Source of the DNA: an uncultured Planctomycetaceae bacterium
Lineage (GTDB): Bacteria > Planctomycetota > Phycisphaerae > SM23-33
Length of the DNA: 64,000 bases
NCBI GenBank assembly: GCA_964557575.1
Contig: CAZLBC010000017.1
Span: forward strand, 4,227 to 68,226
Direction of reading: 5' to 3'
Every line of letters starts with the position of its first letter. The first letter of the stretch is position 1. The notes under the pieces are model-generated. The model was not told the origin of the DNA. It made no database searches and was given only the letters and a program-made list of their open reading frames with translations. This document shows, piece after piece, positions 23,135 to 56,414 of this stretch. A program made the translations under genes and the position numbers.

Positions 23135-26100
23135 ATGAAGCACATCGCGGCCGCGGTCGTTTTCTGCTCACTGATTCCCTGCCGGGCGCAGGACGCCCCG
23201 GCGGAAAAGATACTCGACGCCAGCGGCGTCCGCGGCGGCCTGGTCGTGTATATCGGCCCCGACGCCGAACGGGCGGCCGGCCTGCGGGGCGGCGGACGGT
23301 GCCTGGTCCAGATGCTCTGCACCGACGCTACCGCTGTCGAAGCGGCCCGGCGGCAATTGCGGGACCGGGGGATCTGCGGACCGGTGTCCGCGACCGCCTT
23401 CGACGGGGCCGCGCTGCCCTACGTCGACAACCTGGTGAACCTGGCGGTCGTCGGCGCGCGGTGCGCCGTCACGGCCGCCGAACTGAACCGGGTCCTGGCG
23501 CCCGGCGGGACGGCCATGGTCGCCCCGGGAGTCGACATCGCGGGCCTGCCGGCGGGCGGCGGAAACCGGCTGCCCGGCTGGAAGGGGCTGCGGAAGCCCG
23601 TCGACGACGAGCGCGACGAGTGGACTCACTACTACTACGACGCCGGCGGGAATCCCGTCTCCCGGGACACGATCGTCGGGCCGCCCCACCGCCTCCAGTG
23701 GGTCGGGAGCCCGCGGTGGGCCCGCCACCACGACCACCTGTCCAGCTTCAACGCGATGGTCTCCGCCGGCGGCAGGATCTTCTACATCTTCGACGAGGGC
23801 CCCACGTCGGCGATCCAGCTTCCCCCGGACTGGCGACTGACGGCCCGGGACGCCTACAACGGGACGGTCCTGTGGCGGCGGCGGATCGAGAACTGGAACA
23901 CCCACGTCTGGCAGCTCAAGAGCGGGCCCGCCCAGTTGCCCCGGCGCCTGGTCGCCGCCGGTGAGCGGGTCTACGTCACCCCGGGGCTCGGGAAGCCGGT
24001 GGTCGCGCTGGACGCGGCCACCGGTGAAACGGTGCGGACCTACGCGGGAACGGCCGGGACCGAGGAGATCATTTTCTCGCGGGGCGTCCTGCTGGCGGTG
24101 ATCGACCCGGCGGCCCCGGCCCGCCCCTGGTCGACGCAAGAGGCGTACGCATCCATTCGCGATGTCCGCCGGGAATCCGAACGCTGGCAGTGGCGGCCCG
24201 ACGACCGCCGCGTCACGGCGATCGACGCCGAAACGGGCACGCGGCGGTGGCAGGTGGCGACCCCCGTCGCGCCGATGACGCTCGCGGCGGACGCCGAACG
24301 GGTGTTTCTCCACGACGGGACGCGCGTCGTCTGCCTCGGCCGCAGCGACGGCGAGACGCGCTGGCAATCGAAGCCCCTGCCCCGCGCCGAGCCGATCCGC
24401 TCCTGGTTCGGCCCGCGGCTCCTGGTCGGCGGTGGGGTGGTGGTCTTCGCCGGCGGGGAGAAGATCGTCCGGCACCGGGGCGGGAAAGACACGATGACCG
24501 CCCTCGACGCGAAGACCGGGAAGGCGCTCTGGACGGCGCCGCATCCGCCCTCCGGATACGATTCGCCGGAGGACGTCTTCGTCGTCGACGGCCTGGTGTG
24601 GACCGCGCCCACCACCAACCGGCGGGACAGCGGCCGGTTCACCGCCCGGAAGCTGCAAACCGGGAAGGTCGTGCGGTCGTTTCCGGCCGACGACGGGAAC
24701 CACATGCCCCACCACCGCTGCCACAGCGCGCGGGCGACGGAACAATACATCCTCGCCTCGCGGACCGGGATCGAGTACGTGGACCTCGCCGCCGGACACT
24801 GGAACCGCAACGACTGGGTGCGGGGCGCGTGCCTCTACGGGATCATGCCGGCCAACGGGCTGACCTACGCCCCCTACCACAGTTGCGCCTGCTACATCCT
24901 CGCCAAGCTCAACGGCTTCAACGCCCTGGCAACCCGCCGGGGAGCTCAGCGGATGCCGGTGGAGGTCTCCGACGCCGGCCGCCTGGAGCGGGGCCCCGCC
25001 GGCGATGCCATCACGGCCGAAGTCCCCGCCGGGAAGGACGACTGGCCGACGTACCGCCGCGACCCGTCGCGCAGCGGCAGTACGCCCGCCGCGGTGCCCG
25101 CCCAACTCGCGCCGGCCTGGAAAAGCGAGATCGGCGGCCGGCTCAGCGCCCTGACCGTCGCCCGGGGGCGGGTCTACGCGGCCGCGGTCGACGTTCACAC
25201 CCTGCACGCGATCGACGCCGCGTCCGGCGAGACGGCCTGGACCTTCACCGCCGGCGCCCGGATCGACTCACCGCCGACCGTGTGGCGGGGGCGGGTGCTG
25301 TTCGGCGCTGCCGACGGCCGGGTCTACTGCCTGCGGGCCGCCGACGGCCGCCCGGCGTGGCGGTTCCGCGCGGCCCCCCGCGATCGGCGCATGACGGCGT
25401 GGGAGCAGGTCGAGAGCGCGTGGCCGGTCCACGGCGGCGTCCTGGTCCTGGAAGAGGACGGCGGCGGCACGCCCCGCGGCATCGTGTATGCCGTCGCCGG
25501 GCGGTCGCTGTTCCTCGACGGCGGCCTCCGCCTGCTCCGGCTCGACGCCCGCAGCGGCGCGAAGATATCCGAGAACGTCATGACCGACCGCCACCCGGAG
25601 ACGGGAAAACCGCTGGACGCGAAAATCGCCTGGCCGGACCTGCCGACCGCCCTGCCCGACATCCTCTCCTGCGACGGGACGAACATCTACATGCGGGCCC
25701 AGCGGTTCGACCGGGCGGGCAACCGGGTCGCCGTCGCGCCGCCGGGCGACTTCAAAAAGCAGGCCGGCGCGGGGGCCCACCTGTTCTGCCCGACCGGGTT
25801 TCTCGACGACGCCTGGTGGCACCGGTCCTACTGGCTATGGGGCAAAAACCCCGGGTCCGCCGCCGGCCGATGGTACGCCGCGGCCTACCACGCCCCCGTC
25901 GGCCGGATCATGTCGGTCAGCGGGGACTGCGTCTACGCCTTCGGGCGCACACCGCAGCACTTCCGGCAGACGACCTCCCTGGAGTATCACCTCTTCAGGG
26001 CGAAGAAGGAACCGAAGGTCGTGCAGACCGGGAAGCGGCGCAAGCGGTGGCACCCCGACCCCCACCGGCCGGTCTGCGACTGGTCGATCGAGATCCCCCT

Positions 26101-26407
26101 CCTCGGCCGCGCCCTCCTGGTCGCCGGCGGCCGGGTATTCGTCGCCGGCCCCCCGGACCTGGTCGACACGCGGGTGACGCAACGGAACTGGGGCGACGCC
26201 GAAAGCCAAAAACGGCTTGCCGCCCAGGCCGCGGCCCTGGCCGGCAAGAAGGGCGGGCTCCTGAATGTCTACGCCGCCGCGGACGGGACGGCGGTATCGT
26301 CGCTGCAACTCGCGTCGCCGCCGGTCTTCGACGGCCTCGCCGCCGCGGGCGGCCGGCTGTACCTCGCCGCCGTGGACGGCAGCGTCGTCTGCCTGCAGAA
26401 AAGGTAA
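23135..26407 (+). CDS. Large secreted protein: degenerate class I SAM-methyltransferase-like domain + two PQQ-like beta-propellers (paralog A)
   Basis: GGLVVYIG...LPYVDNLVNL...RVLAPGG; propeller repeats; DWPTYR.D..RSG; HHRC...RGAC...PANG...HSCAC cluster. Confidence 0.8.
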   Translation: MKHIAAAVVFCSLIPCRAQDAPAEKILDASGVRGGLVVYIGPDAERAAGLRGGGRCLVQMLCTDATAVEAARRQLRDRGICGPVSATAFDGAALPYVDNLVNLAVVGARCAVTAAELNRVLAPGGTAMVAPGVDIAGLPAGGGNRLPGWKGLRKPVDDERDEWTHYYYDAGGNPVSRDTIVGPPHRLQWVGSPRWARHHDHLSSFNAMVSAGGRIFYIFDEGPTSAIQLPPDWRLTARDAYNGTVLWRRRIENWNTHVWQLKSGPAQLPRRLVAAGERVYVTPGLGKPVVALDAATGETVRTYAGTAGTEEIIFSRGVLLAVIDPAAPARPWSTQEAYASIRDVRRESERWQWRPDDRRVTAIDAETGTRRWQVATPVAPMTLAADAERVFLHDGTRVVCLGRSDGETRWQSKPLPRAEPIRSWFGPRLLVGGGVVVFAGGEKIVRHRGGKDTMTALDAKTGKALWTAPHPPSGYDSPEDVFVVDGLVWTAPTTNRRDSGRFTARKLQTGKVVRSFPADDGNHMPHHRCHSARATEQYILASRTGIEYVDLAAGHWNRNDWVRGACLYGIMPANGLTYAPYHSCACYILAKLNGFNALATRRGAQRMPVEVSDAGRLERGPAGDAITAEVPAGKDDWPTYRRDPSRSGSTPAAVPAQLAPAWKSEIGGRLSALTVARGRVYAAAVDVHTLHAIDAASGETAWTFTAGARIDSPPTVWRGRVLFGAADGRVYCLRAADGRPAWRFRAAPRDRRMTAWEQVESAWPVHGGVLVLEEDGGGTPRGIVYAVAGRSLFLDGGLRLLRLDARSGAKISENVMTDRHPETGKPLDAKIAWPDLPTALPDILSCDGTNIYMRAQRFDRAGNRVAVAPPGDFKKQAGAGAHLFCPTGFLDDAWWHRSYWLWGKNPGSAAGRWYAAAYHAPVGRIMSVSGDCVYAFGRTPQHFRQTTSLEYHLFRAKKEPKVVQTGKRRKRWHPDPHRPVCDWSIEIPLLGRALLVAGGRVFVAGPPDLVDTRVTQRNWGDAESQKRLAAQAAALAGKKGGLLNVYAAADGTAVSSLQLASPPVFDGLAAAGGRLYLAAVDGSVVCLQKR

Positions 26408-26580: not shown

Positions 26581-29500
26581 ATGAAAACAGTGCATGGTTT
26601 TATTGTGATGCTGTCGGTTGCGGGCACCGCCTCTGCGGCTGCGGGGGCAGAGGCATGTGGCGTTGACGGCGGCATATACGTGCAGATCGGGTGTGATGAT
26701 CCCGACGCACTGACGGCATTGAAGGCCGACAACTGTATCGTCCAGGGACTGGCGACGGATCAAGTGAAGGTGCTCACGGCACGAAGGGCAATAGCGGCAA
26801 AAGGTATGTACGGGCCCGTTTCGGCCGAAGTCTATGACGGCACGGCGCTGCCCTATATATCCGATACCGTAAATCTTCTCGTGGTTGCCTGCGATAAATG
26901 CGCTGTCCCGGTGGAAGAGATTCAACGCGTTCTCTGCCCCGGCGGCGTTGCCCTGGTAAAGGGAAAAAAGATCGTCAAACCCGTCCCCGGCAACACGTCC
27001 GACTGGGGGCATTTTCTCTACGACGCTTCGGGCAATGCCGTTTCGCCCGATACTGCCGTCGACGTGCCCTACAACATCCAGTGGAAAGGCGGCCCGAAAT
27101 GGGCACGAAGCCACGATCGCCTGTCATCTCTCTGTTCGCTGGTTTCAAGTGACGGCAAGATCTTCTACATCTTCGACGAAGGCATGACTGAAGATTTCTA
27201 CTATCCGCCCAGGTGGAACATGATCTGCCGGGACGCGTACAACGGCATAGTCCTGTGGAAACGGGACGTCGGCAAATGGGAAGACCACTGGCGCGCGTTC
27301 AGATCCGGCCCGACACAGTTGAACCGGCGCGTCGTCTCTGCCGGCGACAAGGTGTACGCATCGCTCGGTCTCGGTCAGCCGATACAGGTTATAGATGCGG
27401 CAAACGGGAAGACCATTCGCACTCTTAAGGGAACCGAGGGTGCCGAGGACATCATAGAAAAAGACGGCGTCCTCTATCTCATCGCCCTTCCCTTCGACGG
27501 CGAGCCAGCGGATTACCAGTCGATGTTCAAAGGTCGTTCGCGGCCCGGGCTGCAGAAAAAGATCATGGCGGTCGATACTTCAACGGGCACAATCCTCTGG
27601 GCGAAGAACGACAAGGACACCCTCGGCATTCTGCCGGTTACGCTGATAGTGGATAAGAACAATGTCTATTTCCAGTCACGGAACACGGTCATCGCCCTGG
27701 ACAAGAAGACGGGCAAGCAGAAGTGGAAGACACTGAGGCGTTCGGCCGAGAGCAGACCGTCGAATTTTACGCCGGCACTTCTCGTCTACAAGGATGTCGT
27801 TATATCCGTTGACAATCTGCCGGGGTCGGGCAAGGTTAAAAAGAAGGGGAACATGCCCGCTGAAGGCGAACTCAGGGAACAGGAAAATATCCTCTGGTCT
27901 TTCAGCGCCGGGGCGACATCGATCAAGGGCGAGCTGGTGGCGATGGACGCGGAAACGGGAAAGAAACTGTGGACGACGGACGCCATGGCCGCCTACGGCG
28001 CGCAGATGGACTGCTTCGTAGTGAACGATCTTGTTTACGTAGGCAAAAAGGCCAGGAGACACACGGCGGACTTTGAGCAGGCGCACGATTACCGCACGGG
28101 TGAAGTCAGGAACGAGATACAGACGGCCTCTGCTTTCACCAGAACGCATCATCACCGCTGCTGGCGCAACAAGGCCACGTGCAGGTACATCATCATGGGA
28201 CGGACGGGTATCGAGTTGATCGGTTTCGACGGCACGCTCGCCATGCAGAATGCTTATATAAGGGGCAACTGCGAATACGGTATCATGCCGGCCAACGGCA
28301 TGATATATGCGCCGCCCCATTCCTGCGGGTGTTATATACAGGTCAAACTGAGCGGCTTCTTTGCGTTCTCGCCAAAGGACAAGAACCCCCTGGCCGGCCA
28401 GAAACCGGAGAACAAGCTCGCCAAGGGTCCGGCGTTTGCCCGGGTCTCGGGTCCCGGCAAGAATGCCGCGTCGGACTGGCCGACGTACAGGTGTGACGCC
28501 GCAAGGAGCGGAGGGACGGCATCACCGGTCGGTTCCGATCTCAAGCTCATCTGGAAGAAGAAACTGCCGGGAAGGATCACGGCTTCCGTTGTCGCCGGCA
28601 ATTCGGTCTTTGTGGCGGCGAGAGACAGCCACGTTCTCCATGCCCTGGACCGGGCGAGGGGGAAGACGGAATGGGAGTTCCGTGCCGGGGCGAGGATAGA
28701 TTCTCCTCCGACGATTATCGGCAATACGCTCTATTTCGGTTCCCGTGACGGCTGGGTCTACGCGCTCATCAAGGACTCGGGCGAACTGGCGTGGAAGTTC
28801 AGGGCCGCGAAATCTGATAGAAAAAACAGCGTGTACGGCCAGCTCGAATCCGTCTGGCCGGTTCACGGATCCGTGCTTTTCCTGGACGGTGCGATCTACT
28901 TCGCGGCCGGCAGATCGAGCTATCTTGATGACGGCCTGTATATCTACACGCTCGACTGTAAAACAGGCGGGATACTCATGGAAAAAAAGATGTGGTCCAG
29001 AAACCCGAAGACGGGCGACCAGGAGCCGAACAAGGGTCACAATCTGCCGGGCGGACTGAACGATATCCTCGCAAGCGACGGAGAGACAATCTTCATGCGC
29101 GATTTCCAGATGCACCTCGACAGCATTCCCGAAGGGTACACGATCAAGGGCGTACTGCCTTCGAATCTGAAGCCGCGCATCCACAATACTGCCGGATACC
29201 TCGACGACACCTGGGCCCATCGCACGTACTGGCAGTACGGGACGAAGCAGGGATCGGCCTACGGCGGATGGAAGAGACCCGGCACGTCCACCTACTCGGG
29301 GCGCATCATGGTGCGCGACGGAGACGATGTCTACGGCTACGGCAGAAGGGGTCTGGACAATGACTTCAGGTCGTCCCCGAAGCTCGGTTTTTACGGAAAA
29401 CGCGATATCCATCTGTACAGAGCATCCGTAGCGATTCAATCCAAATCGACTCCGACACCGGCACCGGCAAAGAAACCCGCGAAGAAATCAAAGAATAGAA

Positions 29501-29853
29501 ATAAGCGGTCTGGAAAGAAGCGGAACAAACGCATGGACAACTACGCCTGGCAGAACGACTGCCGCCTGCACGTCAGGTCCATGGTGCTGTCGAAAGACAA
29601 GGTGCTTGTGGCCGGTACGAAGGACATACTCCGCACGGAAGATATGTCGCGTGAGACCATAGCGAAACAGGAGAAGCTGCTGGGGGGCAACGAGGAGCAG
29701 TATTTTGAGATATACTCCAAGGAGGACGGAAAAAAGATCGCCGGTTACACGCTTCCCGGAAAGCCGATTTACGACGGCATGTCGATAGCGCGGGGGTACG
29801 TGTTTATTTCCACGGAAGACGATGAAATCCTGTGTTTCGGACCCGGCAAGTGA
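26581..29853 (+). CDS. Large secreted methyltransferase-like + PQQ-like beta-propeller protein (paralog B, visibly lower GC)
   Basis: Same architecture and motifs as paralog A (GGIYVQIGC, LPYISDTVNL, HHHRC...RGNC...PANG...HSCGC). Confidence 0.8.
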   Translation: MKTVHGFIVMLSVAGTASAAAGAEACGVDGGIYVQIGCDDPDALTALKADNCIVQGLATDQVKVLTARRAIAAKGMYGPVSAEVYDGTALPYISDTVNLLVVACDKCAVPVEEIQRVLCPGGVALVKGKKIVKPVPGNTSDWGHFLYDASGNAVSPDTAVDVPYNIQWKGGPKWARSHDRLSSLCSLVSSDGKIFYIFDEGMTEDFYYPPRWNMICRDAYNGIVLWKRDVGKWEDHWRAFRSGPTQLNRRVVSAGDKVYASLGLGQPIQVIDAANGKTIRTLKGTEGAEDIIEKDGVLYLIALPFDGEPADYQSMFKGRSRPGLQKKIMAVDTSTGTILWAKNDKDTLGILPVTLIVDKNNVYFQSRNTVIALDKKTGKQKWKTLRRSAESRPSNFTPALLVYKDVVISVDNLPGSGKVKKKGNMPAEGELREQENILWSFSAGATSIKGELVAMDAETGKKLWTTDAMAAYGAQMDCFVVNDLVYVGKKARRHTADFEQAHDYRTGEVRNEIQTASAFTRTHHHRCWRNKATCRYIIMGRTGIELIGFDGTLAMQNAYIRGNCEYGIMPANGMIYAPPHSCGCYIQVKLSGFFAFSPKDKNPLAGQKPENKLAKGPAFARVSGPGKNAASDWPTYRCDAARSGGTASPVGSDLKLIWKKKLPGRITASVVAGNSVFVAARDSHVLHALDRARGKTEWEFRAGARIDSPPTIIGNTLYFGSRDGWVYALIKDSGELAWKFRAAKSDRKNSVYGQLESVWPVHGSVLFLDGAIYFAAGRSSYLDDGLYIYTLDCKTGGILMEKKMWSRNPKTGDQEPNKGHNLPGGLNDILASDGETIFMRDFQMHLDSIPEGYTIKGVLPSNLKPRIHNTAGYLDDTWAHRTYWQYGTKQGSAYGGWKRPGTSTYSGRIMVRDGDDVYGYGRRGLDNDFRSSPKLGFYGKRDIHLYRASVAIQSKSTPTPAPAKKPAKKSKNRNKRSGKKRNKRMDNYAWQNDCRLHVRSMVLSKDKVLVAGTKDILRTEDMSRETIAKQEKLLGGNEEQYFEIYSKEDGKKIAGYTLPGKPIYDGMSIARGYVFISTEDDEILCFGPGK

Positions 29854-35932: not shown

Positions 35933-35994
35933 AGGTAGGCTTGCTACCGTTCCGCAGCCCGGGGAAGTTCACCATTAAAGCCCCCACCGGAAAT

Positions 35995-36093
35995 AAAAAA
36001 CGCCGGGAGCAGGCCCGGGCGGACACGAATTGCGAATCCCTCCAGTCTTTTCGCAACTCGTTTTACCGTCCGGCCCGGCCTGCCTGCCCGGCG
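35995..36093 (-). terminator. Long GC-rich hairpin followed by a U6 tract (minus strand)
   Basis: Arms 36001-36036 and 36050-36093; A-run on the plus strand at 35995-36000. Confidence 0.65.
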
Positions 36094-36139
36094 CCAGAAC
36101 CCTCCTCTTCTGCATCTTCGTCTGCGTCTCCCTCGTATA
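35995..36139 (-). ncRNA. Candidate sigma54-dependent small RNA (~145 nt)
   Basis: Predicted start about 12 nt downstream of a -24/-12 promoter; purine-rich 5' segment; long hairpin 36001-36093 with loop AAGACUGGAGGGA; ends in U6; no convincing ORF. Confidence 0.5.
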
Positions 36140-36149
36140 CTATATGTTG

Positions 36150-36166
36150 AGCAAACGGTGTGCCAA
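36150..36166 (-). promoter_or_regulatory. sigma54 (-24/-12) promoter
   Basis: TTGGCAC-ACCGT-TTGCT, with GG and GC exactly 10 nt apart. Confidence 0.7.
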
Positions 36167-36284
36167 AACTAACTTAAAACACGTTCGTCGATCGTATAAT
36201 TTCATATCTAACTGTAATATAAAGTTTTATATTTTATTTCCAACTGCATTTTTCGCCCGATCATTTCGCCGAACCTTGAAAAGT

Positions 36285-36328
36285 GGGGAAATGTACCCGG
36301 TTTTTTTACCCACCTGGGTACATTTCCC
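36285..36328. promoter_or_regulatory. Palindromic candidate upstream activator sequence (bEBP site) 1
   Basis: ggggaaatgtaccc-N17-gggtacatttccc; 120-165 bp upstream of the sigma54 site with an AT-rich tract between; overlaps the region just after the PPC gene stop. Confidence 0.55.
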
Positions 36329-36366
36329 ACCCCATACCATCGTCGTCATCGTTCAGGCGTTCGATC

Positions 36367-37605
36367 TTACCTTCCCGCGAATGCGAGTATCCGGGCGGCC
36401 GATTCGCAGCCGCCCCGGTCGCTGATCCTGAGGATGACGTTCCCCGACGCCGCCTGGTCGAGGGGAACCCGCCAACTGACGCTTCCACTGCTTGCCGGAA
36501 GCACGGCCAGCCGGTTCCAGGTCCGGCCGGTATCCCACGAGACCTCGATAACGACCGTGCGAATATCGGCCGCGGCGTCCCAGCGAACCAGGTAGGTCCC
36601 GCCCGGAGCGACCGTCGCGTCCGCGGCCGGCCCGATGATACGGATCCGGTCGGCCGCCGCGGTCGGCGGATCAGGTTCGAGCCGGTCGGGAGCGGGGCGC
36701 AGACGCCGGTTGGTATCCTCGATCACCGCGGCCAGCGAGACATCTTCGAATGCCGGATCGCCGACGAGCCGGGCGTAATACGTACCGCTCACCGGCCGTG
36801 AAATCGTGACCGCCTGGACGGTGCCGTCGCGGCTCGATGCGTGGTCGTTATCCGCGACGGTCGGCAGGGCCTCGCGGCTGACCAGCAGCCGGCAGTTACC
36901 CCTGCCGCCGCGGGTCAGGAAGGCGACCCCGCGGGCGTTGCGGGGAACCTCCACGCGAAAAAAGTCGGTGCACCGGCGGCCGCCGCAGAGGTCGTCGACC
37001 CGCCGCCCCGACCGCAGCGTCGTGAGCCTGATACCCCGCGCGTCGAGGCGATCGTCGCGATCGCGGTAACGGTCACGGTAGCGATCATCGTCATCGTCAT
37101 CATCATCGCCGCCGCCCCGGGAGGCAGCCAGTTCGCAGAGCCCGCCGATAATGGCCGGCGCCGCACGGGCTATCATGTCACCCGCACCGGGACCGCGTGG
37201 GACGTTGTACCGGGCGACCAGCCGCGCGCCGGCCCCGTACGCCGTGACCCCCTGGACGAGGATCTGCCAGCGGCCGGGCGCGGGGTTGTGAACACATACC
37301 GTCTCGTTGTTTCCCGGGTTCATGCTGGCCGGCCGCCACGGGTGGCCGGCGTGCCTGACGCGCAGGGTCAGGTTGCCGGCGCCGCCGTGCGTCTGGACCT
37401 CGAAGTAGTCCGCGCCGCGGGGGACGTCGATGTGTGCCCACCGCGAGCTGCCGGCCGGGCCGTGTATGGCGATCGGCCGATCGTGTCTCAGCCGCACGCC
37501 CTGGGACCGGGCGGTTTCAGGGAACAGGGAAACGACGGCTATCGATGCGGCCGCCGCAACGAGAAACAACCCTTTACGCGCTGCAAACATCATTTCCGCA
37601 CTCAT
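36367..37605 (-). CDS. Secreted protein with two PPC (pre-peptidase C-terminal) domains, an Asp/Arg-rich linker and a C-terminal Ig-like domain; no protease domain
   Basis: THGGAGNLTL...GNNETV...P.PGRW.I.V.G and TRGGRGN..L...G..QAVTI..P.SGTYY.RL.G repeats; AAAGGAG RBS; signal-like N-terminus. Confidence 0.7.
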   Translation of the reverse strand: MSAEMMFAARKGLFLVAAAASIAVVSLFPETARSQGVRLRHDRPIAIHGPAGSSRWAHIDVPRGADYFEVQTHGGAGNLTLRVRHAGHPWRPASMNPGNNETVCVHNPAPGRWQILVQGVTAYGAGARLVARYNVPRGPGAGDMIARAAPAIIGGLCELAASRGGGDDDDDDDDRYRDRYRDRDDRLDARGIRLTTLRSGRRVDDLCGGRRCTDFFRVEVPRNARGVAFLTRGGRGNCRLLVSREALPTVADNDHASSRDGTVQAVTISRPVSGTYYARLVGDPAFEDVSLAAVIEDTNRRLRPAPDRLEPDPPTAAADRIRIIGPAADATVAPGGTYLVRWDAAADIRTVVIEVSWDTGRTWNRLAVLPASSGSVSWRVPLDQAASGNVILRISDRGGCESAARILAFAGR

Positions 37606-37658
37606 CACACATCTCCTTTCACGTACACACTGCAAATGCCCCCACCTGTTATAAGATT

Positions 37659-37675
37659 CGCAACGTCCGTGCCAA
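37659..37675 (-). promoter_or_regulatory. sigma54 (-24/-12) promoter of the PPC gene
   Basis: TTGGCAC-GGACG-TTGCG, near-consensus; predicted start about 43 nt before the ATG. Confidence 0.8.
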
Positions 37676-37796
37676 ACGAGCGAGCCCTGCCCAAAATAAC
37701 TGCGATGCGATAATTAAGTGTATTTATTTAAAGCAATTAAACGATTTCCCCTTTCCCGTTGCGTGATACGATTCCCCCGCAAGAGCGACGTAAAAC

Positions 37797-37840
37797 GGGG
37801 TATGTTACCCGCGCGGATTTCCCACCTGGATATTCACCCC
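37797..37840. promoter_or_regulatory. Palindromic candidate upstream activator sequence 2, homologous to 36285-36328
   Basis: ggggtatgttaccc-N17-ggatattcacccc; shares CCCACCTGG and the 17-nt spacer with copy 1. Confidence 0.55.
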
Positions 37841-37890
37841 CGATTTCTGTACCATAGACAATCCACCCGTACATCGAGGAGATACCAGCA

Positions 37891-39834
37891 ATGAATCGCA
37901 GAAAGATATCCGCCGTTGTGCCCCTCTCATACCTGTTTCTCGCTGCCGCGCTGCTGACCGCTCCCCCCGCCGCTCGGGGTGCGGAAAAGGCGACGGTGGC
38001 CTCACCCGGCGGGGACGTGACGATCATCTGCGAACTCGCCGACGGCCGTCCCGCGTATTCCGTCAGATACCGCGGCCGCACCGTCGTCGACTCCTCGCCC
38101 CTCGGCCTGGCGTTCGGCACGGACGCCCCGGCGTGGACGATGGCGGGACGGGAACCCGGTGACGTCGATTCGCGGTGGGAACCGGTGTTCGGGAAGCGGA
38201 GCACGGTCCGCAACCGCTACCGCAGCCTGCGGGTTTCCCTGGCGCGGGCGGCCGGCGAGCCGGCCGCGATGGACATCGTCTTTCGGGCCTACGACGACGG
38301 CGCCGCCTTCCGGTATGTCGTCGGACCGCGGGACACCGAACCGGCAACGGTCACCATTGCCGGCGACCGATCGGCGTTCAACCTCCCGGCCGGTTCGACC
38401 GGCTGGTGCTACAACCGCGAGCACCGCCCGAAGGGTCCGTTTTCCCTGAAGGACACCGGCGGCGGGCTGCAACTGCCGGTACTCGTCGACGCCGGCGACG
38501 GGGCCTGGCTGGCCGTCGCCGAGGCGGCCCTGTACGGCTTTCCCCCCTTCCGGCCGACGACCGCAAAGGGTTCCGCTGCCGTCGGCGTGGAGATAGACAC
38601 GGCCGCGGTCCAAACCCCCTTCGCCACCCCGTGGCGGGTGGTGATGCTCGGGGACCATCCCGGGCGGCTCGTGGACTCGGACCTCATGGCCAACCTCAAT
38701 CCCCCCTGCAAAAACGAGGAATTCACCTGGCTGAAATCCGGCGTCTCGTTCTGGGACTGGCGGGCGATCGGCTACAGGGCAGACGACGGCTTCGTGTACG
38801 GCCAGGATTTCGAGACCTGGAAGCGGTTCATCGACCTCGGCGCCGAGACCGGGGTACCCTTCCTCCTGATCGACGCCAACTGGTACGGACCGGAGTTCTC
38901 CGGTGAATCCGACCCATTCACCGGCGGCAAGTCCGGCCAGGTCCGCCGGGCGATCGACTACGGGAAGAAAAAAGGCGTCGGGCTCGTGCTGTACCTGAAC
39001 CACGTGGCCGGAAAGAAGTTCGGGACCGAAAAAATCGTCGCCGCCTACGCAAAATGGGGTGCCGCGGGGATCAAGTACGGCTTCATGCGGGGCCTCCGCG
39101 GCCGGGACAAGGTCAATTACACCCGGAAGATCATCACCGCCTGCGCGAAGAACCGGCTGTCGGTCAACTTCCACGACGGGCCGGTTCCGCCCAGCGGGGA
39201 CGAGCGAACCTGGCCGAATTGCCAGACCCGCGAGTACTGCCACGCCCAGTCGGACGCCAAGCGGTCCTTCTCGCCCGGGACCTTCATCCTCCAGGCCTAC
39301 GTCAACAACCTGATGGGCCCGATCGACATGGACAACGGGATGTTCGACCTGAACAACGCCATGGCCCCGCGGCCCAGGGTCTTCGCGCAGGTGTACTCGA
39401 CGATCGTCGCCGAGGCCGCCCGCACCCTGATCATCTACTCGGGCCTGACCGTGATTCCCGACGCCGCCGGCTTCTATCGGAAACACGGGGAGCTGTTCGG
39501 GTTCATCGCCGCCCAGAAGCAGCCCTGGCGTGAGAGCCGGACGCTCGCCGGGGAAATGGGCGAATACATCGTCACGATGCGGCGGACCGGGGATACGTTC
39601 CTGGTCGCCGCGGCCACGGACGAGGAGGCGCGGACGGTCGGGATCCCGCTGGATTTCCTGCCGGACGGGGAGTACGCGACGGTCATCCACCGGGACGCCG
39701 CCGACGCCCATTACAAGACCAATCGCGAGGCGTACGAGACCGAGAAGCGCGCGGCCACCGCGAAGGACACGATCGAGGCGGCCATGGCACCGGGCGGCGG
39801 CTTCTGCATGACGATCCGGCCGAAGGGGAAATAG
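37891..39834 (+). CDS. GH97 glycoside hydrolase (alpha-glucosidase/alpha-galactosidase family)
   Basis: VASPGG, FRAYDDGAAFRY, TPWRV, FIDLGAE...LIDANW, VNFHDG, PIDMDNG, C-terminal MAPGGGF. Confidence 0.9.
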   Translation: MNRRKISAVVPLSYLFLAAALLTAPPAARGAEKATVASPGGDVTIICELADGRPAYSVRYRGRTVVDSSPLGLAFGTDAPAWTMAGREPGDVDSRWEPVFGKRSTVRNRYRSLRVSLARAAGEPAAMDIVFRAYDDGAAFRYVVGPRDTEPATVTIAGDRSAFNLPAGSTGWCYNREHRPKGPFSLKDTGGGLQLPVLVDAGDGAWLAVAEAALYGFPPFRPTTAKGSAAVGVEIDTAAVQTPFATPWRVVMLGDHPGRLVDSDLMANLNPPCKNEEFTWLKSGVSFWDWRAIGYRADDGFVYGQDFETWKRFIDLGAETGVPFLLIDANWYGPEFSGESDPFTGGKSGQVRRAIDYGKKKGVGLVLYLNHVAGKKFGTEKIVAAYAKWGAAGIKYGFMRGLRGRDKVNYTRKIITACAKNRLSVNFHDGPVPPSGDERTWPNCQTREYCHAQSDAKRSFSPGTFILQAYVNNLMGPIDMDNGMFDLNNAMAPRPRVFAQVYSTIVAEAARTLIIYSGLTVIPDAAGFYRKHGELFGFIAAQKQPWRESRTLAGEMGEYIVTMRRTGDTFLVAAATDEEARTVGIPLDFLPDGEYATVIHRDAADAHYKTNREAYETEKRAATAKDTIEAAMAPGGGFCMTIRPKGK

Positions 39835-52206: not shown

Positions 52207-53394
52207 ATGGCTGACACACTCCTGATCGTTGACGACAACCCGGTCGACAGGAAGATCCTGGGGGGCGTGCTCAAAAAGGAGGGATATGACCTGGTCGTCG
52301 CCGGGGACGGCGAGGCCGCCCTGGCCGCCGTGGGGAAACAGCGACCCGACCTGATTCTCCTCGACGTCATCATGCCCGGCCTGAGCGGGTACGAGGTGTG
52401 CGGCCGGCTCAAGGCGGATGCCGCAACGGCCGACATACCCGTGCTGTTCCTCTCCGGCCTGTCGGAGGCAAAGGACAAGGTAAAGGGACTGAACGCGGGC
52501 GGGCTGGACTACATATCCAAGCCGTTCGACACGGAAGAGGTGCTGGCCCGCGTCCGCGCGCACCTGGAACTGCTCCACCTGAATCGCGACCTGCAGCGCG
52601 CCAACCGGGAACTGGAGGCCCGGCAAAAGCAGGTGGACAAGGACCTGGCGGCCGCCGCCGAAATTCAGCGGACCCTGCTGCCCCGGCGGAAGGCGTCGAT
52701 CAGCACTATCGACATGGCCTGGAAATTCCTGCCGTGTGAAACGGTCGGCGGAGACCTGTTCAACGTCCTTCGCCTGGACGAAAATCACTGGGCCGTATAC
52801 ATGATAGACGTTACCGGCCACGGCGTTCCCGCCGCCATGGTTTCCGTGTCGGTCTCCCACCTGATGGACCCGAACAACGGCCAACTGGTCAAAACCGCGA
52901 TCCACGAGCCCCCCTACTACCGGCTCGCCTCACCCGCGGAAGTGATTACCGGGCTGGACGAAGCCTATTCCCCCGGTCGGCTCGACAAGCTTTTCTCCGT
53001 CAGCTACATGGTCCTCAACGTGCGGACCGGAGCACTGCAGTACAGCAACGCCGCGCATCCCTATCCCCTGCTGGTTCGCGCGACGGGAAAGACGGAACTG
53101 CTCAGGATCGGCGGCACCATGGTCGGCATGGGAGGCGTCATGGCATTCGAGGAAGGAACGGTTGCGCTGGAACCGGGGGACAAGCTGTTTGTGTACACGG
53201 ACGGGATAACGGAGCACCGAAACGAAGAAAAGGATTTTTTCGGAGAACAGCGGCTGTACGACGAAATCACCGGGTTGCGGACCAGGCCGGTCGAAAAAAT
53301 CGTCGAGCGGGTCATGGATGCCGTCATGACATTTTCCCGCCGGAAACCGCGCGACGATGTCAGTCTGCTGGGATTCGAGTATCTCGGCGGGTAA
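52207..53394 (+). CDS. Response regulator with PP2C/SpoIIE (RsbU-like) phosphatase output
   Basis: REC (VDD, LLDVIMP, YISKPF); coiled coil; GGDLF, DVTGHG, YTDGITE, DDVSL. Confidence 0.92.
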
Positions 53395-53453
53395 CGAAAA
53401 CATCGGGTGCGGATTTCGATCGTTGCGACGGGTGTTGCCGCCGAGGTGAAGCC

Positions 53454-56414
53454 GTGAGAATCAAGATCGGTGACAAACTGCTGCTGGTCGCCGCCATAGG
53501 AACGGCCGTCACCGCCGTCCTCGGCGCGGGGTCGGTTTATGTCATCGGCGGCTCGTTGCGCAGAGACCGCATCAATGCCCGCCTCTCTTCAATCGCGCAA
53601 TCAAAGGCCGGCCGCGTCCGGTCGCTGCTCCAGGAATACGCCAACCGCGTCCGCCTCTTCGCCGCATCGGAACTTCTCCGCGCCGACCCGGTCGACGACA
53701 CGCTCGGCGGGCGGCTGGAATCACTCGCCGCGCCGTTCCCGGATATCGCCGCGCTGACACTCGTCGGCCCGGACGGGACGATCACCGCCTCCACCGAACG
53801 CGGGGAGCGGGGAACCGACCGGTCCCGCGATCCCGTCTTCCGCAACGGGCTGACAGCGATCTTCGTCAACGGTATCCACCGGTCGCAAACGACGGGGCAC
53901 AGGGTCATAACCATAGCGGCGCCGCTGCGCGATCCCGTCACCAAACAAGGGCGGGGTGTACTCACGGCGACGATCCGGACAACGCGGCTCGACGAGATCA
54001 TGACCGAACACACGGGGCTCCAGGAGACGGGTGAATCCTACCTGGTCAACCGGGACGGCCTGATCCTCACCCCCACGCGGCACGCGGCGAAACCGCCCCT
54101 GTCCCTGCACGTCGATTCGAAAAATGTCCGGGAGTGGACAGGACGATCCGGAACGGCGGCGGCCGGCGGAGAGATTCCCGAATACCGGGATTACCGGGGC
54201 GTGACCGTCATCGGCACGCATGCGCCCCTTCCCGACAGGGGGTGGTGCGCCTGCGTAAAAATAGATTCGACAGAGGTGTACGAACCGATTGTGCGGCTGA
54301 CCCGGGCCGTATTTATTCTCACCCTTCTTCTGAGCACGGTGGTCACGTCGTTTGTCAGGTCATTTATGCGCCACATACTCAAACCCATACGCCAGTTGCG
54401 GCACGGTTCCCGCCAGATCGGCTCGGGCGACCTGGCGTACCGGCTCGACATACAGACCGGGGACGAGATCGAGGAGCTTGCCCAGGAATTCAACCGCATG
54501 GCGGCGCGCCTGTCCGAAGCACGGGAAGGCCTGGAGCGAAAGGTGGCGGAACGAACCAGGGAACTCGAACAGGCCAAGGGCCTGGCCGAGGAGGCGGCAC
54601 AATCAAAGGCCGATTTCCTCGCGAACATGAGCCACGAAATCCGTACCCCCATGAACGGCGTCATCGGCATGGCGAACCTGCTGCTGTCCGCCGACCTGAC
54701 CGGAGAGCAGTGCGATTACGTCAAGACGATAAAAAACAGCGCCGAATCCCTCCTGGACATCATCAACGATATCCTCGACATCTCGAAGATCGAGGCCGGA
54801 CGGCTGGTCCTGGAGTCGGCGGTCTTCGACCCCCGGTCGGTAATCGAGGACATCAACGACCTGCTCGCCCTGCGAGCCCAGGACAAGGGTCTCGAGTACG
54901 CCTGCCGGATCGCCCCGGACGTCCCCGCGCAGGTCAGGGGCGACCCCTTTCGGCTGCGACAGGTCCTGATCAACCTCCTCGGCAACGCGATCAAGTTCAC
55001 CGAGCACGGTGAGGTGGCCCTGCTGGTCTTCCGGGAAAGGGCGCGGGACGGAACGGTCCTGCTGCGATTCGACGTCAGGGATACCGGCATCGGTATCGAC
55101 GCCGATAAAATAGATTCGCTGTTCGATACCTTCAGCCAGGAAGACGCCTCCACGACGCGCAGGCACGGCGGCACGGGCCTGGGGCTGAGCATAGCAAAAA
55201 ATATTACGGAGATGATGGGCGGGAGACTCTCCGTCACCAGCAGCAAGGGCGACGGATCGACGTTCTCGTTTACGGCCGCATTCGAGAGCGTGCCCGCCGT
55301 TGAGACGGGCCGGCGGCCGCCCGCCTGTCTTCGGGATCTCTGCGTCGCCGTCGTCGAGGAAAACGAGACCAACCGCCTGATGATCCGCGATATGCTTCTG
55401 TCCTGGGGCTGTCGCGTCATCGACGTGCCGGACATCGAATCGCTGCTGTCGGACCGCGACAATGCACAAGACCCGATCGGCGTCACGCTTCTCGGCCCTC
55501 CCCTGCACGGTGACGAACATCCCGACTGCGGCCGAATCGTACCGATGACGACCATGCGCCGGCGCACCGGCGGCTCCCTCGCCAAGCCGATCAAGCGGGC
55601 CGCGCTCCGGGACCTGCTGGTTTCCATCATGAAAGGCGGAGACGCACAACCGACACGGGACGCGCCCGCCGTTTCCGACATTTCATTCGTCGGCAATCGC
55701 GTACTGCTGGTCGAAGACAACCCCGTCAACCAGAAGGTCGCGTGTTCCCTGCTGGAACAATTCGGCTGCACCGCCACGCTCGCCGCCACCGGGCGCGAGG
55801 CACTGGAAGCCCTCGAATCGGCATCATTCGATTGTGTCCTGATGGACGTGCAGATGCCCGGCATGGACGGCTTCGAAGCGACGCGGCGCATACGCGCATC
55901 GGGACAGGCGTACGACGGTGTCCCCATCATCGCCATGACCGCGCACGCCCTGGAGGGCGACCGGGAACGGTGCGCGGCGGCGGGAATGGACGATTACGTC
56001 TCGAAACCCGTGAACCCCGCGGTCCTCGCGAAGGTTATGGACAAGTACCTCGATCGGACACCGGGGGGGCTTGACCGGCATGCGATTCTGCAGCGCGTCG
56101 GCGGGGACGAGGACCTGATGCGGGAGGTCATCGGCATTTTCCTCGACGACATACCGGGGCGTATCCGAGCGATCGAAAAGGCGGTCGAACGGGGCGACCC
56201 GGACACCGTGCAAGCGGAGGCGCATGCCGTAAAGGGATCGGCGGGGAATATCGGCGCGTCCGGTCTTTACGATGCGGCGGGGCGACTGGAAACCGCCGCA
56301 AAAGCGGGGGGGGAAACCGCGGCTGCCTTTCTCGCGGTGCGGCAGCAGTTCGAACTGCTGCGGCCGTCGCTCGGGAACATGGTGGAGCCCGCCGGCGAGC
56401 GGGAAAACGAATAA
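53454..56414 (+). CDS. Hybrid sensor kinase: Cache - HAMP - HisKA - HATPase - pseudo-REC - REC - Hpt
   Basis: GTG start; GESYLVN Cache motif; [17 protein letters not shown]; [11 protein letters not shown]; GGTGLGL; [11 protein letters not shown]; [10 protein letters not shown] Hpt. Confidence 0.93.

Follow-up and report, generated by a model that had tools for sequence, protein, structure and literature searches.

Two short intergenic sequences, P1 and P2, lie 1.5 kb apart on the minus strand of a 64,000-nucleotide stretch of contig CAZLBC010000017.1 (referred to below, at its full length, as the window), which derives from a microbial-mat metagenome and belongs to an uncultured Planctomycetaceae bacterium. 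Both match the -24/-12 promoter consensus of sigma-54 (RpoN) exactly, P1 as TGGCACACCGTTTGC (TGGCAC-ACCGT-TTGC; 36151-36165) and P2 as TGGCACGGACGTTGC (TGGCAC-GGACG-TTGC; 37660-37674). P2 points at a gene (36367-37605, minus strand) for a predicted secreted protein of 412 amino acids with two PPC domains (two stretches matching Pfam PF04151) and an Asp/Arg-rich linker. P1 points at a candidate small RNA of ~145 nt (35995-36139, minus strand). Upstream of each promoter, and separated from it by an AT-rich tract, lies an element of ~45 bp, termed site 1 (36285-36329) and site 2 (37797-37841), respectively. We suggest that these are candidate enhancers, through which one activator might control both promoters.

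Exact matches to TGGCAC-N5-TTGC are rarer by chance than they are here: two were seen in the window, where 0.07 would be expected, and none of 100 shuffles reached two. The GG and GC dinucleotides are ten bases apart in both cores, as this class of promoter requires. Relaxed sigma-54 scans of the 64-kb window gave no further convincing promoter. Both matches are aimed at a plausible transcription unit. The P2 core precedes the ATG at 37605 by 55-69 nt. An AGGAG ribosome-binding site lies 7 nt ahead of this ATG, and the predicted start at ~37648 would give a leader of ~43 nt. The predicted start for P1 is at ~36139-36136, where the candidate RNA, with its own terminator and hairpins, would begin. 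A second copy of CCCACCTG beside P2 (37641-37648) was taken as chance and is not kept in the related organism described below.

Contigs from another microbial-mat metagenome (run X3) are syntenic with 35993-38500 and are about 7-8% diverged in coding DNA. All conservation results given here refer to this one close relative. Differences were listed for each aligned piece except for its last ~30 letters, leaving 35993-36022 (the terminator of the candidate RNA) and 37768-37797 unread. At P1, all 10 core letters are kept in the relative, together with changes in 2 of the 5 N5 letters and in 5 of the 14 letters between the -12 element and the predicted start. Around P2, 124 nt (37644-37767) cannot be aligned and the alignment resumes at 37768; the relative nevertheless has, at the position of the promoter, ...TTTCGCAACATCGGTGC, with GCAA-N5-GTGC in place (GCAA-CATCG-GTGC). 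Over the two promoters, 18 of 18 letters visible in the -24/-12 elements are identical, compared with 6 of 10 N5 letters (Fisher p = 0.01), and the flanks are either 24-36% changed or unalignable.

Overlapping the P1 core there is also a sigma-70-like sequence, TTGGCA-16-TATAGT (36139-36166, minus strand), whose -10 hexamer reads TACAGT in the relative. It might be proposed that both promoters are of the sigma-70 type (P1 TTGGCA-N16-TATAGT, P2 TTGGCA-N16-TATAAC) and that the -24/-12 matches are incidental. P1 does score 10 of 12 in a sigma-70 scan, and overlap of the two types is possible, as at the enterobacterial small-RNA gene glmY, where overlapping sigma-70 promoters occur in some species (PMC3045617). 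At P2, by contrast, the -10 hexamer lacks the final T, and it corresponds to TAACAG or AACAGC in the relative, so that TATAAC is not kept. The TTGC letters, which a sigma-70 promoter would use only as spacer, are retained at 8 of 8 positions while neighbouring letters change. Two exact 10-letter sigma-54 cores are unexpected by chance, making an incidental match unlikely, and we consider the sigma-70 explanation very improbable. The claim of a reading made from the sequence alone (the sequence-only reading), that two sigma-54 promoters are present, is supported by the exact consensus, the orientation and the conservation of the core letters. P1 and P2 are very probably real sigma-54 promoters, their dependence on this factor being predicted from the match to its consensus.

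P1 appears to drive a candidate non-coding RNA and no protein gene. The predicted transcript starts with a purine-rich 5' part, which is followed by a small and then a long hairpin and by a terminator-like site (stem 36003-36018, followed by a U run), and it folds at -66.5 kcal/mol (z = -3.97). The stretch 36073-36136 has no change at any of its 64 positions in the relative, compared with ~7.5% in coding DNA (p ~0.007), and is the best-conserved stretch of the locus. This perfect conservation starts at 36136, the position expected for a transcript that begins 12-15 nt past TTGC, and the similarity to the relative ends at 35993, which is the end of the terminator. These limits fit the expected start and terminator, and thus argue that P1 works as a promoter for a non-coding RNA.

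Five changes in the relative fall in the long hairpin; four affect unpaired letters (in a bulge, an internal loop or the apical loop) and the fifth converts a C-G pair to U-G. Such a structure-neutral pattern has p = 0.03 within the hairpin and p = 0.16 over the whole visible RNA. An open reading frame (ORF) of 47 codons inside the RNA was rejected as coding, as it has three non-synonymous and two synonymous changes in the relative and runs through the terminator. The candidate RNA therefore seems, from this comparison, to evolve as a structure and not as an ORF. GGA and GGAGG motifs are found in its 5' single strand, in the loop of the small hairpin and in the apical loop. No Rfam family matched at gathering level (there was one chance microRNA match, E=0.42), and a 19-mer from the invariant part found only unrelated matches in genomes and metagenomes. 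Pairing with the start regions of 31 genes of the window was also screened, but the screen was uninformative, as no neighbour stood out. Any function of this RNA would be one that we infer from its sequence.

The elements upstream of the two promoters have in common the 9-mer CCCACCTGG, which occurs only twice in the 64 kb. Its starts, at 36309 and 37821, are 145 nt (P1) and 148 nt (P2) from the GG of the -24 element, as the sequence-only reading had stated. Site 1 has the form GGGGAAATGTACCC-N17-GGGTACATTTCCC (in full GGGGAAATGTACCC-GGTTTTT-TTACCCACCTGG-GTACATTTCCC) and site 2 the form GGGGTATGTTACCC-N17-GGATATTCACCCC (in full GGGGTATGTTACCC-GCGCGGA-TTTCCCACCTGG-ATATTCACCCC). Relative to the predicted starts they span about -147 to -191, which is within the 80-200 bp usual for the sites of bacterial enhancer-binding proteins (bEBPs). 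At an offset of 3 nt the upstream regions of P1 and P2 show 28 ungapped matches over 46 positions, a likeness reached by 82 of 19,724 random pairs of places in the window (p ~0.004). A weight matrix of the site gives ~60 bits for sites 1 and 2 and nothing above 12 bits in the rest of the 64 kb, and a repeat search of the window gave no better candidate repeat upstream of either promoter.

These properties also bear on the suggestion that the 45-bp element is a dispersed repeat, resembling repetitive extragenic palindromic (REP) sequences or miniature inverted-repeat transposable elements (MITEs), and is unconnected with the promoters. Site 1 is palindromic, as such a repeat might be. However, the 64 kb contain just two copies, and in the metagenome assembly of the source (run X1), which was read whole, no other contig matches either site at 80% likeness or more. 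Furthermore, the two copies are only 61% alike and are still at a fixed distance from sigma-54 cores. A dispersed repeat is scarcely credible as an explanation.

The sequence-only reading had described the shared element as a palindrome. This applies to site 1, the arms of which form a perfect inverted repeat (13 of 13 bp) around a 17-nt spacer, but not to site 2, where the arms are self-complementary at only 8 of 13 positions (hand count). In the relative, dyad symmetry falls to 11 of 13 in site 1 and 6 of 13 in site 2, and the conserved part is asymmetric. The likeness between the sites likewise continues through the spacer and is asymmetric. Site 1 differs at 6 of 45 positions in the relative (36293, 36302, 36303, 36305, 36315 and 36322) and site 2 at 7 of 45, four of the latter in the N7 spacer and three in the right arm. 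Over both sites, three changes are in the spacer T run of site 1, four in the spacer of site 2 and four in the right arms. The left arm of site 2 has no listed change (its first one or two letters are in the unlisted zone), and TTTCCCACCTGGA is unchanged. If the blocks GGGG-N5-TACCC and TT-N-CCCACCTGG are set apart from the remaining positions, a split that was made post hoc, 2 of 52 block positions have changed compared with 11 of 38 elsewhere (p = 0.0014). Because the changes spare the blocks and affect the right arms, the shared conserved element, as judged from its sequence, is an asymmetric composite, GGGG-N5-TACCC-N7-TT-N-CCCACCYGG, and not a palindrome; the right arm is its softest part. 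An alternative reading of the ~45-bp site is as a pair of 13-bp units, GGR-N7-CCC, which are 30 bp (three helical turns) apart and would thus be on one face of the helix.

Site 1 begins 37 nt past the stop codon of the double-PPC gene. Its inverted repeat might therefore be mainly the 3' hairpin or terminator of that gene, with the likeness to site 2 being secondary or, in a milder form of this explanation, with site 1 serving as both terminator and enhancer. The minus-strand RNA of the perfect 13-bp repeat folds at -33 kcal/mol and is followed by CACUUUUC, and the hairpin is kept in the relative, since the change 36315 T>C adds a G-C pair. Set against this, the U run is short (four in the window, three in the relative) and the loop has 17 nt. 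The arm changes at 36293 and 36322 are not compensatory and give a 2x2 mismatch. Site 2 has no upstream gene on the minus strand but has the left arm and the 9-mer of the spacer in common with site 1, and a terminator role cannot explain it for this reason. A primary role as terminator is quite unlikely; site 1 may still double as the 3' hairpin or as a weak terminator of the double-PPC gene.

In activation by DNA looping, the spacing between enhancer and promoter counts more than the intervening sequence. The tract between P1 and site 1 (36166-36284) has 31% GC overall and 24.7% in 36166-36250, and that between P2 and site 2 (37675-37796) has 28.6% GC in 37690-37745, compared with 64.1% for the window. 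The AT-rich stretch that had been noted between each site and its promoter was thus found at both. In the relative, the first tract carries 29 substitutions, one deletion and one insertion; the two indels cancel, and its length is kept. For the second, 93 letters separate GTGCCA from 37768 (37675-37767) in both organisms. The distance from promoter to site is therefore identical in the relative at P1 and at P2, despite at least 26% divergence and indels. The near-identical spacing at the two promoters, which the sequence-only reading had also remarked, is thus a conserved property of each. Conservation of length while the sequence drifts is a prediction of a looping enhancer, and the AT tracts are presumed to be loop DNA, either bendable or bound by HU or integration host factor (IHF).

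No gene for an activator was found in the window, in agreement with the earlier expectation that it is encoded elsewhere. Pfam scans of ~33 long ORFs were negative, and the motifs GAFTGA and ESELFG and the Walker A motif of bEBPs were absent in a six-frame search.

According to the sequence-only reading, the motif could define a regulon genome-wide. Its occurrence in other organisms was assessed by three pattern scans of 185,579 GTDB species genomes. The genome of the window is itself outside this collection, as its two sites were not returned by the scan for the composite. The promoter together with the 9-mer at 130-160 nt gave at least 119 matches, for a chance estimate of ~130, and none of those listed resembles the site. 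GGGG-N5-TACCC-N10-CCCACCTGG gave 11 matches (~17 expected), none of which is in Planctomycetota and none of which extends the motif. The promoter together with TACCC-N10-CCCACC gave 13 matches (~8 expected), all attributable to chance. Among the matches listed in the three scans, no planctomycete had the arrangement and the motif was never extended. Only the mat runs X1-X5 seem to contain this lineage. One of the chance matches, in a metagenome-assembled genome of Syntrophaceae UBA5764, has a palindrome, GGGGATATTTTCCCCACCTGGGGAAATATTCC, ~150 nt from GCAA-N5-GTGCCA. This palindrome is unrelated in sequence to sites 1 and 2 and may be the activator site of another organism.

Several observations weigh against a common enhancer for P1 and P2. 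Site 1 is 13% changed in the relative compared with 24% in the AT tract, a weak difference (one-sided p = 0.09), and site 2 is conserved no better than its right flank, with drift in its right arm. The change 36315 T>C, one of the two in the shared blocks, converts the 9-mer of site 1 into CCCACCCGG. The motif is weakly defined, by two sites and one close relative, and was seen in no other genome in the GTDB scans. Within the AT tracts there is no IHF consensus within one mismatch, so that bending may be intrinsic or brought about by an HU-like protein. Sigma-70-like hexamers overlap P1, and a search for RNA sequencing runs that hold the locus found none.

Alternatively, the promoters might be real but the likeness of their upstream sites fortuitous, or left by an old local duplication of a promoter cassette. 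Activators would then act from sites elsewhere, or from sites that are not the same for P1 and P2. The identity test alone (p ~0.004), the modest conservation of the whole sites, the altered 9-mer and the number of instances (two in the window, none in the GTDB genomes scanned) are all compatible with this. Against it, the two sites have the same orientation and a near-equal distance from their promoters, each kept exactly in the relative, the changes in the relative avoid the shared blocks, and the window offers no better repeat upstream of either promoter. We regard separate activators, or an old duplication, as rather unlikely, and consider it probable from the sequence comparison that P1 and P2 share one activator site.

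Based on these results, the following mechanism can be proposed. One activator of the NtrC family, encoded outside the window, would probably activate both promoters. Its binding site would be the ~45-bp element whose centre is ~170 bp upstream of each start and which may be taken as two GGR-N7-CCC units with the conserved TT-N-CCCACCYGG element between them. The bound protein would assemble into an active ring. By looping of the AT-rich DNA, the length of which is constrained, the ring would reach the closed complex of the sigma-54 polymerase, and the promoter would be opened by ATP hydrolysis. The products would be the orphan secreted double-PPC protein from P2 and, from P1, the ~145-nt structured RNA, which might extend the response post-transcriptionally. 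Action of the same activator at both sites, and looping, would be in keeping with the established behaviour of this promoter class. As a whole, we consider this mechanism reasonably likely.

The double-PPC protein found only itself among 5.8 billion protein clusters and is thus an orphan. Its Asp/Arg-rich linker, DDDDDDDDRYRDRYRDRDDR (37051-37110), is encoded by short repeats of the GAT/CGT type; the assembly of the relative breaks in this region and carries a 12-nt insertion there. To the right of site 2, a divergent gene (37891-39834, plus strand) encodes a GH97 glycoside hydrolase (Pfam GH97_N, Glyco_hydro_97 and GH97_C). Its named homologues are mainly from Planctomycetota, including Anaerohalosphaera, and some are from Verrucomicrobiota. 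Synteny was also sought by way of GH97 and was rejected, as the contigs that carry the best non-self homologue (63% identity) lack it. A sigma-70-type promoter for the GH97 gene, TGGATA-17-TACCAT (37827-37855, plus strand), is possible from its sequence; its -35 would be in the right arm of site 2, and TACCAT (37850-37855) is unchanged in the relative. A protein bound at site 2 could also affect GH97.

The rest of the window contains sulfatases, glycoside hydrolases, PQQ-type propellers and a hybrid histidine kinase. Two tandem genes (23135-26407 and 26581-29853, plus strand) of 1090 codons each encode PQQ_2 beta-propellers and are probably paralogues. At 52207-56414 (plus strand), a gene for a response regulator fused to a SpoIIE-type phosphatase precedes one for a dCache-HAMP hybrid histidine kinase, which also has receiver and Hpt domains. 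These signalling genes are located amid sulfatase genes and show no link to the sigma-54 sites.

A more far-reaching version of the proposed mechanism would have a lineage-restricted mini-circuit, in a little-sampled Phycisphaerae-like planctomycete of microbial mats, in which one activator coordinates three units. These would be the orphan protein, the RNA (as a CsrA-type sponge or a mimic of a ribosome-binding site) and, through the position of site 2 on its -35, the GH97 gene, with site 1 doubling as a 3' hairpin or terminator. This version is speculative and must be rated as doubtful.

Similar arrangements are well known. NtrC at glnAp2, and members of its family at other promoters, bind two dyad-like sites that are about three helical turns apart and ~110-190 bp upstream of a -24/-12 promoter. 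The paired-site geometry and the distance at the locus described here are alike, whereas the motif is unrelated to TGCACC-N5-GGTGCA, and the comparison uses a half-site, GGR-N7-CCC, that we infer from four sequences. The closest described parallel is QseF/GlrR of Enterobacteriaceae. Together with IHF, this activator controls sigma-54 promoters that resemble each other in their upstream sites and belong to two small-RNA genes, glmY and glmZ, and to the protein gene rpoE (PMC3045617, PMC6075780). As is established for QseF/GlrR, one activator would serve very few sigma-54 promoters in the window, including those of a small RNA and a protein gene. In both systems, similar upstream sites are separated from the start by more than 100 bp that include DNA-bending sequence, and glmY, like P1, has a sigma-70-like overlap. 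They differ in that GlrR uses three TGTC-N10-GACA sites, has defined IHF sites and is encoded beside glmY. The locus of the window, by contrast, has an asymmetric composite motif, no IHF consensus, no activator nearby and an unrelated RNA, and is known from sequence alone.

Other small RNAs reported to be driven by sigma-54 are Qrr in Vibrio (activated by LuxO) and CrcZ (CbrB) and NrsZ (NtrC) in Pseudomonas (PMC10162802, PMC6296734, PMC4253122). Each is encoded by a stand-alone gene that has a terminator of its own and is transcribed from a sigma-54 promoter with an activator site upstream, and they are similar to P1 and its candidate RNA in these respects. They show no sequence or Rfam relationship to the candidate RNA, and they belong to a different phylum. 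Sigma-54 promoters and regulons with activators of the NtrC/ZraR type have been predicted across Planctomycetota, including Phycisphaerae (PMC12316311). The control scheme proposed for this locus is ordinary and well known. The systems compared here share neither its motif nor its RNA or protein. The small RNA is the more notable part of the locus.

If the proposed mechanism is correct, it would leave the understanding of sigma-54 control unchanged and would add to the wide use of sigma-54 in planctomycetes, small RNAs included. The motif would be of value as a basis for scanning the genome and testing binding. Combined with the pair of promoters and the new small RNA, it would provide a concrete handle on regulation in a lineage that is known from few mat metagenomes.

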